The notes below the pieces were generated by a model. That model saw nothing but the letters and a program-made list of their open reading frames with translations. It made no database searches and was not told the DNA's origin. Positions 20 through 13,687 of a stretch of DNA of 15,362 nt are shown one piece after another. The DNA is from a virus (taxonomy: Duplodnaviria; Heunggongvirae; Uroviricota; Caudoviricetes): the IMG/VR virus record IMGVR_UViG_2721755498_000003, one strand, 5' to 3'. Made by a program: the position numbers and the translations under genes. How positions within the stretch are numbered: the stretch's first letter is position 1; the number at the start of each line of letters is the position of its first letter.

Positions 20-1315
20 TTAATTTTTCATTGCTTCGTTATGGGGCATGGTTGGGGCAAACTCGCTTAACTGTGTATTTAACAAAGCTACCTGTGCATT
101 ATTGTTTTCAGACATCCATTTTCCGTATACCTGAAATACCATTTGCGCATTTGCATGGCCCATCTGGTTTGCTATAAATGCCGGGTTAGCACCAGCTGTC
201 AGCGACCAGCAGGCATAAGTATGTCTCGACTGATATGATTTTCGATGGCGGAGTCCGGCACGTTTTATCGCTGCGTCCCACATCTGCCTTATTGAGTCAA
301 CGGTAAAATGGTCACCATAATTTTTTACTCTCGCTGACACTTCAGGTTGAAAAACAAAGGTGCATTTTTGTTTTTCTGTTCTGCCATACTCTCTGAGGTG
401 AACATCAATGATATGCTCTTTGCTCAGTCTCGTTAATGTCATCTGACTCCGGAGAGCGTCGATTGCTGGCTTAATAAGATGAATGACCCGATTGGTTCCC
501 GCCTGTGTTTTTGGTACCGTGAAACGGTCTTTTGCTAAATTTCTCCTGATCATCATTGTTCCATTTTTCAGATCTATGTCCTCCCATCCAAGTGCACACA
601 GCTCACCAGGGCGAACGCCAGTATAAACAGAAACACACCATAAATTTTTTGCTTGCTGATTTCTGCACGCATCGATAAGACGGATAAATTCCTCCCGCGA
701 AAGAGGATCCGGAATGGTTCTTGATTCCTTTAATGGCGAGATCCCCTTAAACGGATTATCTGCCAGGTAACCGTTATCAACACCAAACTGGAACACGGCG
801 TTAAGATTTGTCATGTAATTATTTACAGTTACAGCCGATCTCCCTGGTTGTGTAACAATATAGTTACTTTTGGGGATCTGGTATCCAGTCAGTAGCTCTT
901 TACGAACCTCCAGTAATTTTTCTTTATTAATCGATGAGGCAAGATTTTTTTCACCGATTATGCTCAGGATATTTTTGATGACGGCACGGTATGTGTTGAG
1001 TGATGTTTTGGCGACTTCAGTTTCTTTCAGTGCCAGAAATTTTTCAGCCAGTTCTTTTATGGTTAAATCTTGTCGGGCCTCACCAAATTTTTCCAGATTG
1101 CGTGAGGAGGGAAACTGTTTTGCATAGTCGAAAACACCAGTTTTTATTGCGTAACAAACAGAGGAGCGTAGTTCACCTGCAACGCGCCTGTTTTTTGCTG
1201 TGTCAGGAACCCCCAGATTTTCCCTGACTCTTACGCCTTTATAAACAAACCAGATACGTAATTTCCCTCCATGGTTTTCCACGCCTGTCGGATATTTCAT
1301 TTCAACTTCTCTCAT
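20..1315 (-). CDS. Phage tyrosine integrase (site-specific recombinase)
   Basis: 431-aa ORF at the prophage end. C-terminal region carries the tyrosine-recombinase signature (...SRHTYACW... then ...MGHANAQMVFQVYGKW..., i.e. R/H-x-x-R box and GH...Y catalytic tyrosine, like lambda Int LGHKSDTMASQY). Followed on the same strand by a small xis-like gene. The 3' end abuts the window start, so the att site should lie just left of position 20. Confidence 0.9.
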   Translation of the reverse strand: MREVEMKYPTGVENHGGKLRIWFVYKGVRVRENLGVPDTAKNRRVAGELRSSVCYAIKTGVFDYAKQFPSSRNLEKFGEARQDLTIKELAEKFLALKETEVAKTSLNTYRAVIKNILSIIGEKNLASSINKEKLLEVRKELLTGYQIPKSNYIVTQPGRSAVTVNNYMTNLNAVFQFGVDNGYLADNPFKGISPLKESRTIPDPLSREEFIRLIDACRNQQAKNLWCVSVYTGVRPGELCALGWEDIDLKNGTMMIRRNLAKDRFTVPKTQAGTNRVIHLIKPAIDALRSQMTLTRLSKEHIIDVHLREYGRTEKQKCTFVFQPEVSARVKNYGDHFTVDSIRQMWDAAIKRAGLRHRKSYQSRHTYACWSLTAGANPAFIANQMGHANAQMVFQVYGKWMSENNNAQVALLNTQLSEFAPTMPHNEAMKN

Positions 1316-4769: not shown

Positions 4770-4827
4770 AAAAAGGGCGGCAGAGCAGTCACGGAGTAAA
4801 ACTGATACCGCCAAACGTCACCAGAAA
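4770..4827 (-). ncRNA. dicF: DicF small regulatory RNA (ftsZ-targeting sRNA) with intrinsic terminator
   Basis: Minus-strand sequence TTTCTGGTGACGTTTGGCGGTATCAGTTTTACTCCGTGACTGCTCTGCCGCCCTTTTT matches the DicF RNA as I recall it. It ends in a GGCGG...CCGCC hairpin followed by a T-run. Lies between ydfC and dicB. Confidence 0.8.
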
Positions 4828-5869: not shown

Positions 5870-6277
5870 TTATTTTATTGATTTATTTTTACGCGCTTTA
5901 AGCATTTCTTCGAAGAGTTTGTTGAAGTTTTCTACTCTTGCGCGCATTTCAGACAGCAAGGCTTCCTGCTCGGAAGATGGAAGAGCATCGAATAATTCGA
6001 TCAATTCTTTGTGGTTGGGAGTTAGCTCTGTTTCCACATGAAGTTCTTGTGCAGGCACTGGTGCCTTGTCTTCGTCACCAAACATTAGCCATGTAGGTGA
6101 GCACTTCAGAGCATCCGCTAAAGCAAACAATCGTTTTCCGACTGGCTGGGTTTCGTCTCTTTCCCATTGTGAAATTGTGACGTGAGCAACTCCAGCGAGG
6201 CGCGCGGCTTCTCGTTGTGTTAAGCGTAATTCTTTTCGTCGCGCCAGAACTCGCTGGCCCAGGGTTCTTGTATCCAT
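5870..6277 (-). CDS. dicA: DicA-like repressor (XRE/cI-type HTH N-terminus, DicA-type C-terminus)
   Basis: 135-aa ORF. HTH region LTQREAARLAGVAHVTISQWERDETQP. C-terminal motifs CSPTWLMFGDEDK and EMRARVENFNKLFEEMLKAR are recognisably DicA-like, but the N-terminal half is diverged from my recollection of K-12 DicA. Divergent from a Cro-like gene. Confidence 0.8.
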   Translation of the reverse strand: MDTRTLGQRVLARRKELRLTQREAARLAGVAHVTISQWERDETQPVGKRLFALADALKCSPTWLMFGDEDKAPVPAQELHVETELTPNHKELIELFDALPSSEQEALLSEMRARVENFNKLFEEMLKARKNKSIK

Positions 6278-6299: not shown

Positions 6300-6344
6300 T
6301 TGACTTAGGTATCCCGCGCACAATAATGTTAGAAAAGTCTAACA
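6300..6344 (+). promoter_or_regulatory. Rightward early promoter (P_dicC, pR analogue) with overlapping operator
   Basis: -35 TTGACT (6300-6305), 16-nt spacer, -10 AATAAT (6322-6327). The palindrome TGTTAGA-AAAG-TCTAACA (6327-6344) overlaps the -10 and start site. On the opposite strand a TAGAAT -10-like element sits 12 nt before the dicA ATG, suggesting a nearly leaderless repressor transcript. Confidence 0.55.
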
Positions 6345-6358
6345 AGAGGGGGGCTTTG

Positions 6359-6586
6359 ATGCTTAAAGTTGACGCAATTACTTTTTTTGGCAGCAAAACA
6401 AAGCTTGCCAATGCCGCAGGAGTGAGGCTGGCAAGTGTTGCTGCTTGGGAGATACTGGTTCCTGAAGGTCGCGCGATGCGTCTACAGGAGGCATCTGGCG
6501 GGGAGCTTCAGTATGATCCCAAAGTTTATGATGAATATCGTAAGACGAAGCGGGCGGGGCGGTTGAACAATGAAAATCACTCCTGA
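6359..6586 (+). CDS. dicC: DicC/Cro-like small regulator (75 aa)
   Basis: Start at the internal ATG 6359 (MLKVDAITFFGSKTKLANAAGVRLASVAAW...) preceded by a GAGGGG RBS. The six-frame ORF starts at 6326 inside the operator. Divergent from dicA, in the Cro position of the switch. Confidence 0.7.
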   Translation: MLKVDAITFFGSKTKLANAAGVRLASVAAWEILVPEGRAMRLQEASGGELQYDPKVYDEYRKTKRAGRLNNENHS

Positions 6587-7091
6587 ACAGGCTCGTGAGG
6601 CTCTGGATGCCTGGATATGTCGACCAGGAATGACACAGGAGCAGGCGACGATATTAATCACTGAAGCATTCTGGGCTTTGAAAGAGCGCCCGAACATCGA
6701 TGTTCAGCGTGTCACAGATGAAGGTGGCGCGGTTGATCAGCGAGCGCTTGGTGTTAATCGAGTGAAGATATTCGAACGCTGGAAGGCTATCGACACCAGG
6801 GATAAGCGTGAAAAGTTCACGGCGCTAGTGCCTGCGATTATGGAGGCTATCCGGATTAGTGATTTCAGGTTGTATCGTGAAATTACTGACGGAAAAAGCA
6901 TCACGTGCATGATCGCCGGGTTAAACAAAGAATATGGCGATGTGGTGGAGTCCGGACTGCTTTTTGCTGATCCTGCCGTAGTGGATCGTGAAACTGACGA
7001 ACTTATAGAAAAAGCAATTGCTTTCAAGCTTGCGTATCGACAGCAATACCAACAAAAAGCTGGATGGAATTATGAGCCTTCTTTTTGCTGA
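6570..7091 (+). CDS. YdaT/CII-like early regulatory protein (putative)
   Basis: 173-aa ORF overlapping the dicC end by 17 nt. It sits in the position occupied by cII/YdaT-family genes in lambdoid prophages. Function is inferred from context and weak recollection of the family. Confidence 0.5.
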   Translation: MKITPEQAREALDAWICRPGMTQEQATILITEAFWALKERPNIDVQRVTDEGGAVDQRALGVNRVKIFERWKAIDTRDKREKFTALVPAIMEAIRISDFRLYREITDGKSITCMIAGLNKEYGDVVESGLLFADPAVVDRETDELIEKAIAFKLAYRQQYQQKAGWNYEPSFC

Positions 7092-8037
7092 ACGCCCACT
7101 GGTTATAAACACGCAGCTGGCAATGAAAATTGGCTTAAACGAAGCCATTGTTTTGCAACAACTGCACTACTGGTTGAGAGATACCAACTCCGGCATGGAA
7201 TGTGATGGTGTTCGCTGGATTTATAACACAACGGAACAATGGCTGGAACAGTTCCCATTCTGGTCAGAGTCAACGTTAAAGCGCGCGTTTGCAAGTCTGA
7301 AAACGCTGGGGCTTTTGCGTTGTGAAAAGCTCAATAAATCAAAGCGCGATATGACCAATTTCTACACGATCAACTATGGGAGCGAGCTTTTAGATGGTGG
7401 CAAATTGAGCGAATCCATCGGTTCAAAATGCGCCGCTCCATCAGGTCAAAATGACACGATGGAAGAGGTCAAAATGAAACGCTCCATTGGTTCAAAACGA
7501 CCCAATGTCATCGGGTCAAAATGGCCTGATGATCTTACAGAGAATACAACAGAGATTACTACAGAGAATAAAAACACTTTTCGTCCGGAAGCTTCGCAAC
7601 CGGACCCGCAGACGACTGAACAGGATTCTTTAACCCGGAACTCCGACGCGGTTGTGTTTAGTGCGAAAAAACGCCAGTGGGGTAGCAGGGAGGATTTGGC
7701 GTGTGCGCAGTGGATCTGGGGGCGGATCGTGGGTCTCTACGAACAGGCAGCCAGTGATGATGGCGAGATCATGCGACCAAAAGAGCCTAACTGGACTGCC
7801 TGGGCCAATGACGTGCGCACAATGCGGATGCTGGATGGCAGAAGCCACAGACAAATTTGCGAAATGTTTGGTCGGGTTCAGCGAGATCCATTCTGGGTAA
7901 AAAACATCATGAGCCCGTCAAAGCTCCGCGAAAAATGGGACGAACTGGTCATCCGCCTGGGACGTTCACCTGTACAGCGTTGTGTTAATCATATTTCTGA
8001 ACCGGATACAGAAATTCCGTCTGGTTTCAGAGGATAA
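7072..8037 (+). CDS. Replication initiator, lambda O-like (origin-binding) protein
   Basis: Start taken at ATG 7072 (MSLLFAERPLVINTQLAMKIGLNEAIVLQQLHYWL...); the six-frame ORF uses an upstream TTG at 7018. Tandem iterons lie inside the coding sequence and give a repeated SIGSK/IGSK peptide motif, as in lambda O, where ori sits inside the gene. Located after the cro/cII-like genes. Confidence 0.7.
   Translation: MSLLFAERPLVINTQLAMKIGLNEAIVLQQLHYWLRDTNSGMECDGVRWIYNTTEQWLEQFPFWSESTLKRAFASLKTLGLLRCEKLNKSKRDMTNFYTINYGSELLDGGKLSESIGSKCAAPSGQNDTMEEVKMKRSIGSKRPNVIGSKWPDDLTENTTEITTENKNTFRPEASQPDPQTTEQDSLTRNSDAVVFSAKKRQWGSREDLACAQWIWGRIVGLYEQAASDDGEIMRPKEPNWTAWANDVRTMRMLDGRSHRQICEMFGRVQRDPFWVKNIMSPSKLREKWDELVIRLGRSPVQRCVNHISEPDTEIPSGFRG
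7417..7573. repeat. Putative phage origin of replication: five iterons plus AT-rich tandem repeats
   Basis: GGT(T)CAAAA(T/C)G cores start at 7420, 7444, 7467, 7489 and 7514 (spacing 22-25 bp), each with internal dyad symmetry (e.g. GTCAAAATGAC). They are followed by three 12-bp-period repeats ACAGAGA(A/T)TA at 7537, 7549 and 7561 in an AT-rich stretch, consistent with a DNA-unwinding element. Confidence 0.7.
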
Positions 8038-8077
8038 GTGTTGATTTCAGGTCATGAGGTAATTTTAAGGGGGACTT

Positions 8078-8500
8078 GTGGCAAAAGTTTTTACACAAGA
8101 AGAGCGGGAAAAAATTAAATGGCAGGTGGTGGAACTCGTGCGCCAGAGCGGCCGTGAGACGTTACGGCAACTGGAAGCTAAAACAGGTGCGACTAGATAT
8201 CTGATGAGCGTTCTTGCCAGAGAGCTGGTAGCCAGTGGCGATGTATACAACTCCGGCTACGGGTTATTCCCCTCTGAACAGGCGCGTAAGGACTGGCAAA
8301 ACGCCCGCAAAAAACTCTCGAGGGCAAAGGTGAAGAAACCTGCTGTGGTTGATCCGGACCTTATCTGGTCATCACCTGACGGAGAAATACGTCGCTACGA
8401 CAGTCGCCTAAACATAATCTGTCGCGAGTGCCGGAAGAGCGAAGTTATGCAGCGCATACTGGCTTTCTATCAGGGTAATTTTCAGGACGTGGCGCAGTGA
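8078..8500 (+). CDS. Hypothetical phage protein (140 aa), possible winged-helix DNA-binding protein
   Basis: GTG start at 8078 with a strong RBS (TAAGGGGGA) 4 nt upstream. Its stop overlaps the start of the next ORF in a GTGA arrangement. No motif I can assign with confidence. Confidence 0.6.
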   Translation: MAKVFTQEEREKIKWQVVELVRQSGRETLRQLEAKTGATRYLMSVLARELVASGDVYNSGYGLFPSEQARKDWQNARKKLSRAKVKKPAVVDPDLIWSSPDGEIRRYDSRLNIICRECRKSEVMQRILAFYQGNFQDVAQ

Positions 8501-8853
8501 GTGCACCGGCAACCATTCTTGATATGTGCTGTGGCAGCCGCATGTTCTGGTTCGATAAGTCTGACAAACGGGCGATATTCAGCGATATCAGAAAAGAAGG
8601 ATACACATTACGCAATGGGAGACGCTTGATTATCAGCCCTGACATTATCGCAGATTTTCGTGCATTATCATTTGCAGACGCATCTTTTTCGATGGTTGTA
8701 TTAGACCCTCCGCATCTTGAGCGTGTTGGTGATAACGCCTGGATGGGAAAGAAATATGGACGGCTGAATAAAGATGCCTGGCGTGATGATTTGCGACAGA
8801 GATTTAAAGAAGCTTTTCGGGTGTTGAGGCCGCACGGCGTTCTGATTTTTTAA
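8497..8853 (+). pseudogene. Beta-class N6A/N4C DNA methyltransferase, N-terminal fragment (3'-truncated)
   Basis: FSMVVLDPPHLERVGDNAW...RFKEAFRVLRPHGVLIF matches the beta-class layout (hydrophobic run, DPPY-type motif, then RVLKPGG-type motif), with His replacing the usual aromatic residue. The ORF stops 3 codons after that motif. No FxGxG AdoMet-binding region follows in any frame. Confidence 0.5.
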
Positions 8854-9115
8854 TGGAATGAAACGCAAATACCGGTAAGCCAGATTCTGGCACTGACAGA
8901 TAGAAAGCCTGTTATCTGTCAACGAACAGGGAAAAAACGATAAAACCCACTGGATTATTTTTATGAAAGAGGCATCCAGTGAGTAGATTCGTAAGGTTAC
9001 AGATACGTATATCTGAATAATTAAATTCAGTTCTGTAAATAAAACTTAATCCTTAACCGGATGGATTTCTGCACCCTCAGAACATCAGGAGGCCGCCCGA
9101 AAGGGCGGTAGTGAA

Positions 9116-10184: not shown

Positions 10185-10518
10185 ATACAGCGAACTCCAT
10201 TGGTTTAGTTGGATATTTACTGTGCTGGACAAAAACGGTTTGCGGGGAAATCTTAGTTAAGTAGAATGACTGCGGGTGCTTGAGGCTATCTGCCTCGGGC
10301 ATGGACACCAACGGCAGATAGAGAAAAGCCCCAGTTAACATTACGCGTCCTGCAAGACGCTTAACATTAATCTGAGGCCAATTTCATGCTAGACACATGT
10401 AGGTTAGCCTCTTACGTGCCGAAAGGCACGGAGAAGCAGGCTATTGTTAACACCAAGCTGTAATGTCCCCTTTGAACCATTCTAAAATGTCCCCAGACAA
10501 TTCTCTGGGGGATTTTTC

Positions 10519-11859
10519 ATGATCAAAGAGACTGTTACGATGAGTCATAAGGAACTCCACCGACTTCAGATTATTCAGGAGTCAATTAATCGACATATTA
10601 CTCAGGAACAAGCTGCGGCACGCATTGGCATTTCTATTCGGCAGGTTAAACGTCTGGTGCAACGGTATAGAAATGAAGGGCCTTCTGGTCTGGTTTCCCA
10701 CCGACGTGGAAAGCGTCCTAATAATTCCTTTTCTACTGAATTCAGAGCAACAGTAATTTCACTCCTCAAAGGCCGTTACGCTGATTTTGGACCTACGTTT
10801 GCGTGCGAAAAATTGCGCGAGATACACGGTTTATCTTTATCCGTTGAAACTCTCAGAAAGTGGATGATAGAAGAGGGGTTATGGCGTGAACGCCGTCGTA
10901 AAATTGCCCGTATATATCAACGCCGCATGCGACGACCATCTTACGGTGAACTGATCCAGATTGATGGCTCACCTCATGACTGGTTTGAAAATCGAGGCCC
11001 CAGATGTACACTGATCGTTTTCATTGATGATGCCACCAGTGCGTTGATGGCGTTGCGTTTTGTGCCTGCTGAAACAACCCGGGCTTACATGGAAACCCTC
11101 CGGGGTTACCTTAATGATCATGGCGTACCGCTCGCTCTCTACTCTGATAGACACAGTATATTCAGGGTAAATAACCCAGAGCGGGAAGGTGAGCTGACCC
11201 AGTTCACTCGTGCGATAAAGACACTGGGCATCGAGCCAATCCATGCCAACAGCCCGCAGGCAAAAGGGCGGGTAGAGCGCGCCAATCAGACACTACAGGA
11301 CAGGCTGGTCAAAGAAATGCGGCTTCAGAATATCAGTGATATTGAAACAGCAAATGCATGGTTGCCGACCTTTATTGAAGCCTATAACAACCGGTTCGCT
11401 ACGTCGCCTCGTACTACTGATAATGCTCATCTTGATGTGCACCATTCTGAAGAGGAACTGGGTTATATCTTCAGCCTACAGGCGAAGCGCGTTCTGTCTA
11501 AAAATCTCACTTTCCAGTACAAAAGCAGTGCGTTTCAGGTACGCAGTGAGAGCCGGGGATATCGACTTAGGCATTCGGTTGTTACTGTATGCGAGAACTT
11601 TGACGGTGAAATTAACGTTCTGTATGACGGGAAAGCGCTGGGCTGGGAAAAGTATGTTGATGGCCCGGAGCCTATACCACTGGATGATGAAAAGAGTGTC
11701 CATGAACGAGTGGATAATGCCCGTATTGATTTACGCTCAAAATACTATGTTAAACCTAAAGCTGACCATCCCTGGCTTACGCGCCGAACGCAAAGTCATC
11801 AGCAAGTTAAGCCCCCGAAGTTACCTAAAAAGAAGCCTGATCCCGATAAAAAAGATTGA
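10519..11859 (+). CDS. DDE transposase with N-terminal HTH and rve-type integrase core (single-ORF IS, ISNCY/IS1202-like)
   Basis: 446-aa ORF with RBS GGGGGA 7 nt upstream. HTH region QEQAAARIGISIRQVKRLV. Catalytic triad candidates: D in IQIDGSPHDW, D in LYSDRHSIF, E in KGRVERANQTLQ. Basic Lys/Pro-rich C-terminal tail. Family assignment is from memory, not a search. Confidence 0.85.
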   Translation: MIKETVTMSHKELHRLQIIQESINRHITQEQAAARIGISIRQVKRLVQRYRNEGPSGLVSHRRGKRPNNSFSTEFRATVISLLKGRYADFGPTFACEKLREIHGLSLSVETLRKWMIEEGLWRERRRKIARIYQRRMRRPSYGELIQIDGSPHDWFENRGPRCTLIVFIDDATSALMALRFVPAETTRAYMETLRGYLNDHGVPLALYSDRHSIFRVNNPEREGELTQFTRAIKTLGIEPIHANSPQAKGRVERANQTLQDRLVKEMRLQNISDIETANAWLPTFIEAYNNRFATSPRTTDNAHLDVHHSEEELGYIFSLQAKRVLSKNLTFQYKSSAFQVRSESRGYRLRHSVVTVCENFDGEINVLYDGKALGWEKYVDGPEPIPLDDEKSVHERVDNARIDLRSKYYVKPKADHPWLTRRTQSHQQVKPPKLPKKKPDPDKKD

Positions 11860-12295: not shown

Positions 12296-12628
12296 TTAGA
12301 CGTAAATATCAATGGTGCCAGCGGTATTTGTATCGTCTTTTTTCTCTTCTTTTTTATCAGGCTGAACTGTCGCGTCTTCATTCTTTTTCTCTGCCTGCTG
12401 CCTTAACAACTGCTCCAGTTGAGCCCAGAGGCTTTCAATTTGCTTCTGTACCAATGCAGCCATTTCTTTTTTCTGCTGTGTCGTCATCCCCTCTTCCGAT
12501 GAGATTTTCCCAAGCTTTTCAGTCAGCACCTGAATTTGTCTTGTGATTTTGGCTATTTCTGATGTTCCTTCCGGGGCGGAGTTGTTTGAAATAACGGTTG
12601 AGGTATTTCCCTGAATTGTGACAGACAT
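12296..12628 (-). CDS. flxA: FlxA-like protein (FliA/sigma-28-regulated, Gln/Lys-rich coiled-coil-like)
   Basis: 110-aa ORF (MSVTIQGNTSTVISNNSAPEGTSEIAKITRQIQVLTEKL...) with AAGGAG RBS and a canonical sigma-28 promoter immediately upstream. Confidence 0.75.
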   Translation of the reverse strand: MSVTIQGNTSTVISNNSAPEGTSEIAKITRQIQVLTEKLGKISSEEGMTTQQKKEMAALVQKQIESLWAQLEQLLRQQAEKKNEDATVQPDKKEEKKDDTNTAGTIDIYV

Positions 12629-13160: not shown

Positions 13161-13400
13161 ATGGGTAGCATTAACCTGCGTATTGACGATGAACTTAAAG
13201 CGCGTTCTTACGCCGCGCTTGAAAAAATGGGTGTAACTCCTTCTGAAGCGCTTCGTCTCATGCTCGAGTATATCGCTGACAATGAACGCTTGCCGTTCAA
13301 ACAGACACTCCTGAGTGATGAAGATGCTGAACTTGTGGAGATAGTGAAAGAACGGCTTCGTAATCCTAAGCCAGTACGTGTGACGCTGGATGAACTCTGA
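13161..13400 (+). CDS. relB: RelB antitoxin
   Basis: 79-aa ORF MGSINLRIDDELKARSYAALEKMGVTPSEALRLMLEYIADNERLPFKQ..., recognisably RelB. Its stop overlaps the relE start in a TGATG arrangement. Confidence 0.9.
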   Translation: MGSINLRIDDELKARSYAALEKMGVTPSEALRLMLEYIADNERLPFKQTLLSDEDAELVEIVKERLRNPKPVRVTLDEL

Positions 13401-13687
13401 TGGCGTATTTTCTGGATTTTGACGAGCGGGCACTAAAGGAATGGCGAAAGCTGGGCTCGACGGTACGTGAACAGTTGAAAAAGAAGCTGGTTGAAGTACT
13501 TGAGTCACCCCGGATTGAAGCAAACAAGCTCCGTGGTATGCCTGATTGTTACAAGATTAAGCTCCGATCTTCAGGCTATCGCCTTGTATACCAGGTTATA
13601 GACGAGAAAGTTGTCGTTTTCGTGATTTCTGTTGGGAAAAGAGAACGCTCGGAAGTATATAGCGAGGCGGTCAAACGCATTCTCTGA
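13400..13687 (+). CDS. relE: RelE toxin (ribosome-dependent mRNA interferase)
   Basis: 95-aa ORF MAYFLDFDERALKEWRKLGSTVREQLKKKLVEVLESPRIEANKLRGMPDCYKIKLRSSGYRLVYQVIDEKVVVFVISVGKRERSEVYSEAVKRIL, recognisably RelE. Confidence 0.9.
   Translation: MAYFLDFDERALKEWRKLGSTVREQLKKKLVEVLESPRIEANKLRGMPDCYKIKLRSSGYRLVYQVIDEKVVVFVISVGKRERSEVYSEAVKRIL

Follow-up and report, generated by a model that had tools for sequence, protein, structure and literature searches.

We read the 15,362-nt stretch of DNA analysed here (the window), which belongs to a lambdoid, Qin/mEp460-like E. coli prophage, as carrying a lambda-type origin of replication inside its own initiator gene, whose product would recruit DnaB-DnaC through a DnaT-like C-terminal tail (probability roughly 0.55). 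That the iterons form a functional origin is very probable; that the tail itself directly recruits DnaB-DnaC stands at about even odds.

Operon context and domains of the initiator

The initiator gene lies in a lambda-like early region, and the features first needed here are the following (coordinates are those of the window).

5870-6277, minus strand: cI/HTH_3 gene
6300-6327, plus strand: pR-like promoter, TTGACT-16-AATAAT (10/12 match in a promoter scan), directly upstream of cro, in lambda synteny
6326-6586, rightward early operon: P22_Cro gene
6570-7091, rightward early operon: YdaT/cII-like gene
7072-8037, plus strand: O-like replication initiator gene, an open reading frame of 321 aa (PHROG 391, 'replication initiation O-like', 1e-90)
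7072-7395, plus strand: N-terminal winged-helix domain, residues 1-108, presumed to bind the iterons
7639-7962, plus strand: C-terminal helical core, residues 190-297, homologous to the C-terminal domain of lambda O
7993-8034, plus strand: C-terminal tail ISEPDTEIPSGFRG, residues 308-321, presumed helicase/loader-recruitment peptide
8078-8500, plus strand: DUF977 gene (LygF/YdaW, 'Ren-like'; Pfam PF06163, 5e-29; PHROG 142), a non-ATPase

The first 20 nt of the initiator gene are shared with the end of the cII-like/YdaT gene, and the pR-like promoter putatively drives cro, the cII-like gene and the initiator gene rightward through the origin. Homologues of the O-like protein number 4276 in Enterobacteriaceae. 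Neither the protein nor its halves matched any Pfam family, even at E 10, and the protein was placed in its family through PHROGs, a BLASTP match to lambda O and a fold search. Its first-pass description as an O-like initiator applies to the C-terminal core, which is 34% identical to the C-terminal domain of lambda O over 148 residues (BLASTP E-value = 5e-26), but not to the N-terminal domain, which is of a different winged-helix family: it gives no alignment to the N-terminus of lambda O and does not match Pfam Phage_rep_O. In an AlphaFold2 model of moderate confidence, the best structural matches of this domain are the iteron-binding RepA_N initiators (pSK41/pTZ2162 RepA), to which its fold comes nearest, and DnaD-like replisome organisers, and related families in PHROGs are labelled 'DnaD-like'. 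The linker encoded by the repeats is predicted by AlphaFold2 to be disordered. The representative homologue library includes one member with a lambda O tail (P0262).

The isolated phage HannyBb has an O gene with an identical N-terminal domain and C-terminal core as its sole recognisable replication gene, and the O region of mEp460_ev081 is 97% identical to that of the window; the earlier suggestion of a replication-competent module thus gains indirect support. A truncated gene for a methyltransferase and an IS element lie further downstream in the prophage of the window.

Iterons, AT-rich block and dyad within the coding sequence

All of the repeats reported in the first-pass annotation were recovered inside the open reading frame 7072-8037, as had been claimed, and they are arranged as follows (no strand is assigned).

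7398-7523: iteron array, dyad-symmetric unit GGTCAAAATGACC, 23-bp period
7398-7407: degenerate sixth iteron, TGGCAAATTG, intact in relatives
7421-7430, 7444-7453, 7467-7476, 7490-7499 and 7514-7523: iteron cores, spaced by 23, 23, 23 and 24 bp
7536-7579: AT-rich block, presumed DNA-unwinding element, with three 12-bp repeats and the conserved AATAAAAAC
7583-7605: GC-rich dyad GTCCGG-N11-CCGGAC, which includes the palindrome GAAGCTTC, 3' of AATAAAAAC

The core GKTCAAAAYG occurs exactly five times in the window, counting both strands, against 0.26 copies expected by chance, and none of 200 shuffles contained five copies. Tandem Repeats Finder and a separate repeat search each independently recovered the same array. 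The five dyad-symmetric iterons had been placed at 22-25-bp spacing, which narrows to 23-24 bp, and the dyad symmetry is real: the family consensus GGTCAAAATGACC has the arms GGTCA/TGACC and the flanks TCCATC...GATGGA. A period of 23 bp is not divisible by three, so three frames are used to read the cores, and the encoded peptides are SIGSK, SGQN, EVKM, SIGSK and VIGSK, among them the SIGSK-type peptides noted earlier. Relatives carry five to eight iteron copies, and a natural deletion of 93 bp among the homologues fuses iteron 1 to iteron 5.

The three ACAGAGA(A/T)TA repeats that had been described after the iterons in an AT-rich stretch are likewise present (ACAGAGAWTA at 7537, 7549 and 7561; 0.03 expected by chance), and relatives carry three to five copies of this 12-mer. 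The block has a GC content of 30%, and purines make up 70% of its top strand; no 40-mer of the gene is less stable, and it ranks within the window's top 1%. The peptide that it encodes, TENTTEITTENK, is invariant. The GC-rich dyad is kept in six of the seven diverged homologues. No DnaA box (TTATCCACA) was found at one mismatch or fewer in 7000-8050, the nearest relaxed match being at 8089, and helicase recruitment through DnaA boxes was rejected, as there are none near the origin.

Selection on the DNA and inheritance with the N-terminal domain

A first IMG/VR scan by full-length alignment returned 80 loci at 98-100% identity, which were uninformative for comparison; the diverse homologues were obtained from a scan of genome contigs using an alignment of the C-terminal domain. 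Among seven diverged homologues, synonymous-codon identity was 87-95% over nt ~7400-7627, a stretch that includes the GC-rich dyad, versus 49% in the flanking domains (by element, 0.87 in the iteron array, 0.95 in the AT-rich block and 0.49 in both protein domains). Residues 108-185, with synonymous identities of 0.87-0.95, nevertheless have a lower amino-acid identity than the domains. Since synonymous identity in the repeat region exceeds that of the domains, selection acts on the DNA itself. The origin had been placed at 7417-7573; the array within it stands, but the constraint at the DNA level is wider, about 7400-7627.

All ten of the loci with an N-terminal domain of the window type have at least four copies of GGTCAAAAT and at least three of ACAGAGAATA, whatever their C-terminal domain or tail, and where the N-terminal domain is unrelated, the middle of the gene carries other repeats, with periods of 22-24 bp. 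The iteron sequence and the N-terminal winged-helix domain are therefore inherited as a unit.

A DnaT-type tail and no loader gene

The last 14-15 residues of the initiator follow the tail of E. coli DnaT, which is near-invariant in 105 DnaT sequences. The tail ISEPDTEIPSGFRG matches DnaT 166-179 (VSEPDSQIPPGFRG) and fits the conserved DnaT pattern [ILV]S[EQ]PDxxIPxGFRG (NCBIfam DnaT positions 160-179). Only the last 15 residues of the two proteins align (67% identity), with weak statistics (E 0.18-0.6 against PDB sequences), and the profile-profile similarity is gone when the tails are removed (P 0.26). The O-like protein has neither the N-terminal oligomerisation domain of DnaT nor its PF17948 three-helix bundle. 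A short, acidic peptide for which disorder is predicted, the tail is conserved among homologues, whereas the linker preceding it is not. The literature on the motif, on YdaU/DUF1376 and on 'initiator-solo' modules, in which subscription journals were thinly covered and a prior description is possible, yielded no description of the tail.

The first-pass annotation correctly saw no P- or DnaC-type loader downstream. There is no helicase or loader gene in the window, and neither the window nor any of 80 close relatives yielded a homologue of DnaC, lambda P, DnaT or YdaU. The isolated phages HannyBb and LLS are likewise without a helicase or loader gene, and in the whole genome of HannyBb no homologue of DnaC, YdaV or lambda P was found by tblastn and no helicase is annotated. 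The next gene, predicted to encode a non-ATPase, is indeed one, DUF977. In other phages, DUF977 follows lambda P (L082) or the DnaC-like YdaV (Rac) and occupies the position of ren, and in other loader-less modules with a GFRG-type tail the next genes are PerC-like, DUF1627, methyltransferase or ParB-HTH genes, with no DUF977; it was thus rejected as a hidden loader. The DnaT-type tail, whose putative partner is DnaB-DnaC, bears out the further expectation that helicase recruitment may work differently in this module.

Tail type and loader type across phages

For the O C-terminal family, the tail type was compared with the next gene in 65 parsed loci at species level. In these loci, tryptophan-rich tails were followed by lambda P in 37 of 37 cases and GFRG-type tails in none of 16; two of the 16 GFRG-type loci were followed by a DnaC paralogue, and 14 had no DnaC neighbour. 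A motif-anchored scan of IMG/VR recovered 119 open reading frames ending in the motif, with seven N-terminal classes and three classes of C-terminal domain; the next gene was a DnaC paralogue in 65, DUF977 in 39 and lambda P in none. In reverse, 79 of the 80 loci with a YdaV-like dnaC were preceded by an open reading frame ending in IPxGFRG. The same scaffold was found both with and without a phage dnaC. A protein 75% identical to that of the window (P0036) has a different tail and P downstream, and the state of the tail changes at least 11 times on the tree of the C-terminal core. Five loader-less loci have other tails (L116-L118, L127 and L136). As the end of the gene that encodes the tail adjoins the downstream gene, part of this co-occurrence is possibly linkage by descent, and the samples of viral contigs contain redundancy. 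Residue A84 of DnaC (the dnaC1331 site) is conserved in the phage DnaC paralogues, a hint only.

Comparison with known systems

It is textbook knowledge that lambda has its origin within the initiator gene, and iterons lie inside the rep gene of RepA_N plasmids as they do here. The proposed likeness to the lambda ori-in-O architecture held on every testable point, namely context, codon 117, the AT-rich block and GC dyad, C-terminal homology, synonymous constraint and inheritance of the iterons with the N-terminal domain. In both, the initiator gene occupies the same operon position, after cro and cII and opposite a cI-type repressor, and it contains the origin, whose first strong iteron core begins at codon 117. 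The iterons of both have dyad symmetry, a centre resembling TCAAAAYG and a repeat period of ~20-24 bp; after them come an AT-rich, purine-skewed block and then a GC dyad, which in the window has the position of the right-hand palindrome of lambda ori. Both proteins consist of two domains, and the iterons encode the disordered linker between them; the C-terminal cores of the two proteins are homologous. The N-terminal domains, however, are unrelated in sequence, lambda has four iterons versus the five or six of the window, and lambda has a P gene and an O tail of ...NTDWIYGVDL, whereas the window lacks P and has the tail IPxGFRG.

The host order dnaT-dnaC, a tail-bearing protein followed by a DnaC-type loader, recurs in phages. 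DnaT is a restart factor, whereas the tail in the window sits on an initiator predicted to bind the origin. In the YdaU-YdaV-YdaW module of Rac, YdaU precedes the DnaC paralogue YdaV and ends in PDSAIPPGFRG, the same tail as that of the window, and the context is also alike, with racR/ydaS/ydaT-like genes upstream and DUF977 downstream; YdaU differs in its N-terminal family (DUF1376) and in its class of C-terminal domain, and Rac keeps a DnaC paralogue where the window has none. LLS has a lone initiator without helicase or loader, an O family protein that ends in TKIPEGFRG and has mid-gene repeats as in the window, but its N-terminal domain and its class of C-terminal domain are different.

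Among earlier reports of an O/DnaT chimera, the nearest concerns DopC of Cellvibrionales and Oceanospirillales, an O-derived protein in which a DnaT C-terminal element replaces the C-terminal domain of lambda O (PMC5509034). For DopC, the DnaT-like part is reported to be a domain, matched by HHpred to 2RU8, whereas the initiator of the window has a core of the lambda O type and only its tail is DnaT-like. DopC also differs in being chromosomal and domesticated, without iterons and with a P-like partner (PMC5509034).

Proposed mechanism and alternative readings

On the reading that we prefer, transcription from the pR-like promoter would express the O-like protein, and dimers of its N-terminal winged-helix domain would bind the five or six dyad-symmetric iterons; the resulting nucleoprotein complex would open the adjoining AT-rich 12-mer block. 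The phage has no helicase or loader of its own, and the disordered 14-residue tail of the initiator, which appears to copy that of the host restart protein DnaT, would bring host DnaB-DnaC to the opened origin, most likely via DnaC. The tryptophan-rich tail region of lambda O would pair with P in the same way. Somewhat short of even odds, we consider that a DnaT-like tail lets initiators dispense with a loader gene and, by extension, that tails form a partner code, tryptophan-rich for P and GFRG for DnaC.

The recruitment of DnaB-DnaC by the E. coli preprimosome is itself an open question (PMC5778457, PMC11087952, PMC13377028), and no direct DnaT-DnaC contact has been documented despite decades of work (PMC5778457, PMC11087952). 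This absence favours a second reading of the tail, in which the origin is as described but the tail docks onto PriA, PriB or PriC, and the initiator is an origin-bound surrogate of DnaT for PriA-dependent loading of DnaB. The C-terminal domain of DnaT docks onto the HD2/CTD of PriA through a conserved hydrophobic interface (structures 9ZBT/9ZBU; PMC13377028), and the tail contains the hydrophobic I-P-x-G-F. However, the text of PMC13377028 neither assigns the contact with PriA to the extreme tail nor gives residue-level roles for DnaT 160-179, the O C-terminal core has no similarity to the three-helix bundle of DnaT, and the frequent DnaC paralogue downstream (65/119, and 79/80 in reverse) makes a partner on the DnaC side simpler; we regard PriA docking as unlikely. 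Only slightly more probable is that the tail is no recruitment peptide but serves oligomerisation or the handling of ssDNA and keeps SSB off the opened origin, DnaB-DnaC being loaded without specific contact, or that the helicase comes by another route, such as DUF977 or R-loops formed by transcription. DnaT 84-179 binds ssDNA more cooperatively than DnaT 84-153 (PMC4132743), DnaC by itself can load DnaB on ssDNA that is bare, but not when SSB coats it (PMC11087952), and DUF977 comes directly after O in the clade of the window. Yet the tail here is a short, acidic peptide of predicted disorder attached to a core unrelated to the DNA-binding bundle of DnaT, DUF977 also follows P and DnaC and is missing from other loader-less GFRG modules, and the tracking of loader type by tail type would be left without explanation.

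The repeats might instead encode a mere disordered linker, or the module might be a decayed one that lost P, with no working origin in either case. The predicted disorder of the encoded linker, the truncated methyltransferase gene and IS element, and the existence of in-frame iteron-deletion variants are consistent with this. However, conservation in the gene peaks at the synonymous sites of the repeat region, whereas the peptide encoded there varies, translation passes through the iterons in three different frames, and the loss of P goes with a specific tail, not with random decay. A decayed module was rejected on the genomes of HannyBb and LLS, isolated phages that both have loader-less modules, and we hold this whole reading, already largely refuted, to be very improbable.

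Implications for lambdoid phage replication and the preprimosome

The origin of the window is in itself an ordinary new member of the lambda kind. According to the available part of PMC12315714, about a tenth (34/314) of enterobacterial lambdoid phages encode only an O-type initiator, and the replication of such O-only modules, LLS included, is 'not yet understood'; that part makes no mention of the tail motif. A concrete and cheaply testable explanation of how O-only phages replicate is offered by the DnaT-type tail of the initiators compared in this analysis, that of LLS among them. For the host, the authors of the 2026 preprimosome structures propose DnaT's N-terminal domain, rather than its tail, as the recruiter of DnaB/DnaC (PMC13377028). 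Phages appear to have copied one piece of DnaT, the invariant tail, and to have placed it beside DnaC-type loaders, and the tail is therefore the piece to test in preprimosome recruitment. If the broader reading is true, on which such a tail lets initiators dispense with a loader gene, the long-missing contact in the handover from the PriA-PriB-DnaT preprimosome to DnaB-DnaC would be identified. The findings also suggest that tail swapping is the way in which lambdoid replication modules change their helicase-loading partner.

Genomic location of the replication module

The 15.4-kb window represents the early region of an E. coli prophage, lambdoid and of the Qin/CP-933O-like type. Over positions 6300-8900 it shares 99.4% identity with Escherichia phage PhiR42_1 and 96-97% with the phages HannyBb and mEp460_ev081; in some records (mEp460_ev081 and mEp460_4F5, for example) the initiator is labelled "Primosomal protein I". 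The following features were recognized.

20-1315, minus strand: integrase, first in the gene order
Between integrase and repressor, in this order: excisionase, exonuclease VIII and small Qin-type genes
4775-4826, minus strand: DicF antisense RNA (Rfam, 76.7 bits), in the leftward early region, as in Qin
5870-6277, minus strand: cI/DicA-like repressor
6300-6327, rightward: sigma-70-like promoter TTGACT-16-AATAAT, reading through cro, the cII-like gene and O
6326-6586: Cro/DicC
6570-7091: cII-like gene of the YdaT family
7072-8037, plus strand: O-like initiator gene
8078-8500: DUF977/LygF
8497-8853: methyltransferase ORF after DUF977, matching a 229-position PHROG profile over positions 52-165 only
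10274-10445, plus strand: sok antitoxin RNA of a hok/sok-type module (Rfam, 104 bits), as in Qin
10519-11859: 446-aa transposase (HTH_28/rve_3) of an insertion sequence, downstream of the methyltransferase ORF
12296-12628, minus strand: flxA, as in Qin
13161-13687: RelB antitoxin and RelE (ParE-fold) toxin pair, as in Qin

From its profile coverage the methyltransferase gene looks truncated, and the insertion sequence arrangement downstream of DUF977/methyltransferase in PhiR42_1 differs from that of the window; beyond the replication module, this prophage may have decayed in part. The start codon of O lies 20 nt within the 3' end of the cII-like/YdaT gene (7072-7091), and in relatives the P or DnaC gene overlaps or abuts the O stop codon (-24 to +6), which together suggest translational coupling along the module.

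An origin within the initiator gene

The five iterons and three ACAGAGA(A/T)TA repeats that the first-pass annotation had placed inside the O gene are present in numbers far above chance. GKTCAAAAYG occurs five times in the window with both strands scanned (7421, 7444, 7467, 7490 and 7514), against 0.26 expected and with none of 200 shuffles giving five, and ACAGAGAWTA three times (7537, 7549 and 7561; 0.03 expected); Tandem Repeats Finder and a repeat finder recovered the corresponding 23- and 12-bp periods. When diverged homologues are aligned, the full iteron reads GGTCAAAATGACC, an imperfect palindrome (GGTCA/TGACC, with flanks TCCATC...GATGGA) that confirms the internal dyad symmetry noted before. 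The same alignment shows a sixth, degenerate iteron at 7398-7407 and, at 7583-7605, the dyad GTCCGG-N11-CCGGAC, which comes after a conserved AATAAAAAC. No 40-mer of the O gene is less stable than the 12-mer block (30% GC; top strand 70% purine), and no DnaA box was found within the origin region. The repeated SIGSK/IGSK peptide was also recognized; the SIGSK, SGQN, EVKM and IGSK peptides arise because the iteron cores are read in three frames.

Three comparative tests (synonymous sites, N-terminal linkage, and copy-number variation or deletion) indicate that the repeat DNA itself is functional. When same-amino-acid codon pairs were scored for codon identity in seven homologues of about 70% amino acid identity, the identical-codon fraction was 0.87 for residues 108-154 and 0.95 across the 12-mers, remaining about 0.9 as far as about residue 185, but 0.49 in each of the two folded domains; selection therefore acts at the nucleotide level from about 7400 to 7627. 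In all 10 loci with this N-terminal domain, no fewer than four copies of GGTCAAAAT and three of ACAGAGAATA are retained, however far the C-terminal part has diverged and whichever tail it has. Unrelated N-terminal domains are accompanied by other mid-gene repeats (periods of 22-24 bp or 15/30 bp) at an equivalent place in the gene, a specificity linkage that is classical for lambdoid origins. Relatives have five to eight iterons and three to five 12-mers. The 290-aa homologue P0016 carries a natural, precise in-frame 93-bp deletion fusing iterons 1 and 5 (L359:3309-3400 on the E. coli contig DBLUCI010000006.1, against window 7421-7514). The 290-aa initiators P0016-P0021 have one intact iteron left and are probably the product of an origin-defective prophage allele; the in-frame ori- 'r' deletions of lambda resemble this 93-bp deletion.

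The annotated iterons of lambda begin at O codon 117, with an A-rich block behind them; in the window, too, the first strong iteron core starts at codon 117. Synonymous constraint, N-terminal linkage and this lambda-like anatomy thus uphold the earlier lambda ori-in-O interpretation, and as an origin the window's is an ordinary member of that kind. It differs from lambda in the non-lambda N-terminal domain of its initiator, and from the usual members of the kind in a loader-less module with a DnaT-type tail.

Another 12-bp repeat, CCGCACATAA, was found downstream of the iterons in the O genes of L121, L126, L129-L135, L138, L139, L150 and L154 (Xenorhabdus, Pantoea, Sodalis and Proteus loci), as two triplets with spacings of 12, 12, 45, 12 and 12, and in the locus L151 the window's ACAGAGAATA 12-mers accompany a diverged N-terminal domain and different iterons. 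Such triplets may be a general element of O-gene origins.

Absence of a loader and the C-terminal tail of the initiator

The gene after O encodes DUF977, a non-ATPase as had been stated; it occupies the ren position and not that of a loader, because elsewhere it follows the lambda-P gene (L082) or the DnaC paralogue YdaV (Rac). A tblastn search for homologues of DnaC, YdaV, lambda P, DnaT and YdaU gave none in the window itself, none in 80 near-identical viral contigs (taken with 4-kb flanks) and none in the HannyBb genome, complete at 45 kb (a phage isolated on E. coli), in agreement with the first-pass statement that no P/DnaC-type loader is evident downstream.

AlphaFold2 predicts for O a winged-helix domain at the N-terminus (residues 14-100, pLDDT 60-76), a long stretch of disorder encoded by the origin DNA (85-202), a helical C-terminal core (203-297, pLDDT 70-90) and a disordered C-terminal tail. 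Judged by 34% identity over 148 residues (E = 5e-26), the core is homologous to the C-terminal domain of lambda O; the N-terminal domains of the two proteins gave no alignment. The same core exists in 2949 representative proteins, with many different N-terminal domains and C-terminal tails. The only DnaT-like element found in O is its short tail: ISEPDTEIPSGFRG, its final 14 residues, matches the very C-terminal end of DnaT from E. coli, VSEPDSQIPPGFRG, by NCBIfam, PDB sequences (2RU8, 6AEP and 9ZBT) and hhalign.

When genomes were scanned at species level for the O C-terminal family (67 loci, 65 parsed), tryptophan-rich tails (NTDWxxG... or HWNSxEAWENTL) were followed by a lambda-P homologue overlapping or abutting the stop codon in 37 of 37 cases, and GFRG-type tails in none of 16. 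Two of these 16 have a DnaC paralogue at +3 (1e-84 to E. coli DnaC), and the other 14 have DUF977, PerC-like, DUF1627, methyltransferase or ParB-HTH genes, except for L114, in which an 80-aa ORF without a Pfam match comes next. Five loader-less loci (L116-L118, L127 and L136) carry other tails. P0036, with 75% identity to the window's O and the same iterons, diverges just after the last core helix to end in ...DWNSADGWEDVL, and is followed by lambda-P and then DUF977. The tree of the core requires at least 11 tail-state changes, and its enterobacterial clade has both tail types intermixed.

A motif-anchored scan of IMG/VR (PDxxIPxGFRG plus stop) gave 119 ORF ends, of which 65 are followed by a DnaC paralogue, 39 by DUF977 and none by lambda-P; the viral samples behind these counts are redundant. 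With tails removed, the complete ORFs fell into seven classes by N-terminus and three by C-terminal domain (one with the lambda-O core, one termed "TFFGP" and one that contains true DnaT C-terminal domains), and the same scaffold was seen both with and without phage dnaC. Conversely, an ORF ending in IPxGFRG precedes 79 of 80 YdaV-like dnaC loci in a low-diversity sample. YdaU of Rac (DUF1376) ends in ...VSLPDSAIPPGFRG and is followed by YdaV, the host dnaT is directly upstream of dnaC, and the "O family protein" of the loader-less phage LLS, with another scaffold and mid-gene 15-bp repeats, ends in ...VDTKIPEGFRG. By these comparisons tail type tracks loader type, although part of the association is possibly linkage, because the tail coding sequence adjoins the downstream gene.

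The O-type initiators of L116, L117, L118 and L136 (Sodalis, Acerihabitans, Edwardsiella and Providencia) form a second loader-less class: their tails are of the form ...W(A/T/N)EC(S/E)QR..G..AA, and the genes that come next are methyltransferases or small ORFs, neither P nor DnaC. L118 shares the N-terminal domain and iterons of the window. Six IMG/VR loci (L242, L230, L275, L211, L159 and L274) encode phage proteins of about 260 aa in which a genuine C-terminal domain of DnaT (E about 1e-28 against DnaT 85-154) and the tail are fused to phage N-terminal domains. A DnaC paralogue comes next in two of these six purely DnaT-like proteins and in 25 of 28 related YdaU-type proteins, which suggests common ancestry of the host dnaT-dnaC and phage ydaU-ydaV-type pairs. 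The 55 phage DnaC paralogues sampled align with E. coli DnaC over the full length (46-50% identity), and at least 95% conserve alanine 84, the site of dnaC1331, a mutation that blocks the PriA/PriB/DnaT pathway in vitro. This conservation is a possible hint to the site of action of a DnaT-type tail.

A possible role of the tail in helicase loading

In the mechanism that we propose, O dimers would bind the iterons through the winged-helix domain, the assembled complex would open the 12-mer block as pR transcription passes through, and the flexible tail would then recruit DnaB-DnaC, the host's here and with a phage-encoded DnaC paralogue in relatives. The tail would act towards DnaB-DnaC much as the tail region of lambda O does towards P. 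Work with lambda hybrid phages established that the C-terminal part of O interacts with P, and from the co-occurrence of tail and loader we infer that the extreme tail of lambda O is the contact.

DnaB-DnaC as the partner of the tail is likewise inferred, and the main rival is a partner on the PriA side, because cryo-EM shows the C-terminal domain of DnaT docked on PriA and the authors favour DnaT's N-terminal domain as the recruiter (PMC13377028). Reviews and recent papers know of no direct DnaT-DnaC contact and call the recruitment of DnaB-DnaC by the preprimosome unresolved (PMC5778457, PMC11087952, PMC13377028). As a second rival, the tail could serve purely for ssDNA handling or oligomerisation (PMC4132743).

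Two prior reports come closest. One noted loader-less modules without giving a mechanism, LLS being the loader-less phage of this 2025 paper (PMC12315714). The other is on DopC, a bacterial protein derived from O that bears the C-terminal domain of DnaT, an O/DnaT-domain chimera whose P-like partner runs counter to the pairing of tail and DnaC (PMC5509034). In the literature searched, with most subscription journals outside its scope, no description of the tail motif or of its link to loader type was found. For the question of how DnaB is loaded in loader-less lambdoid phages, the tail provides an answer that can be tested, and the finding points to the tail of DnaT as a candidate element for the recruitment of DnaB-DnaC.
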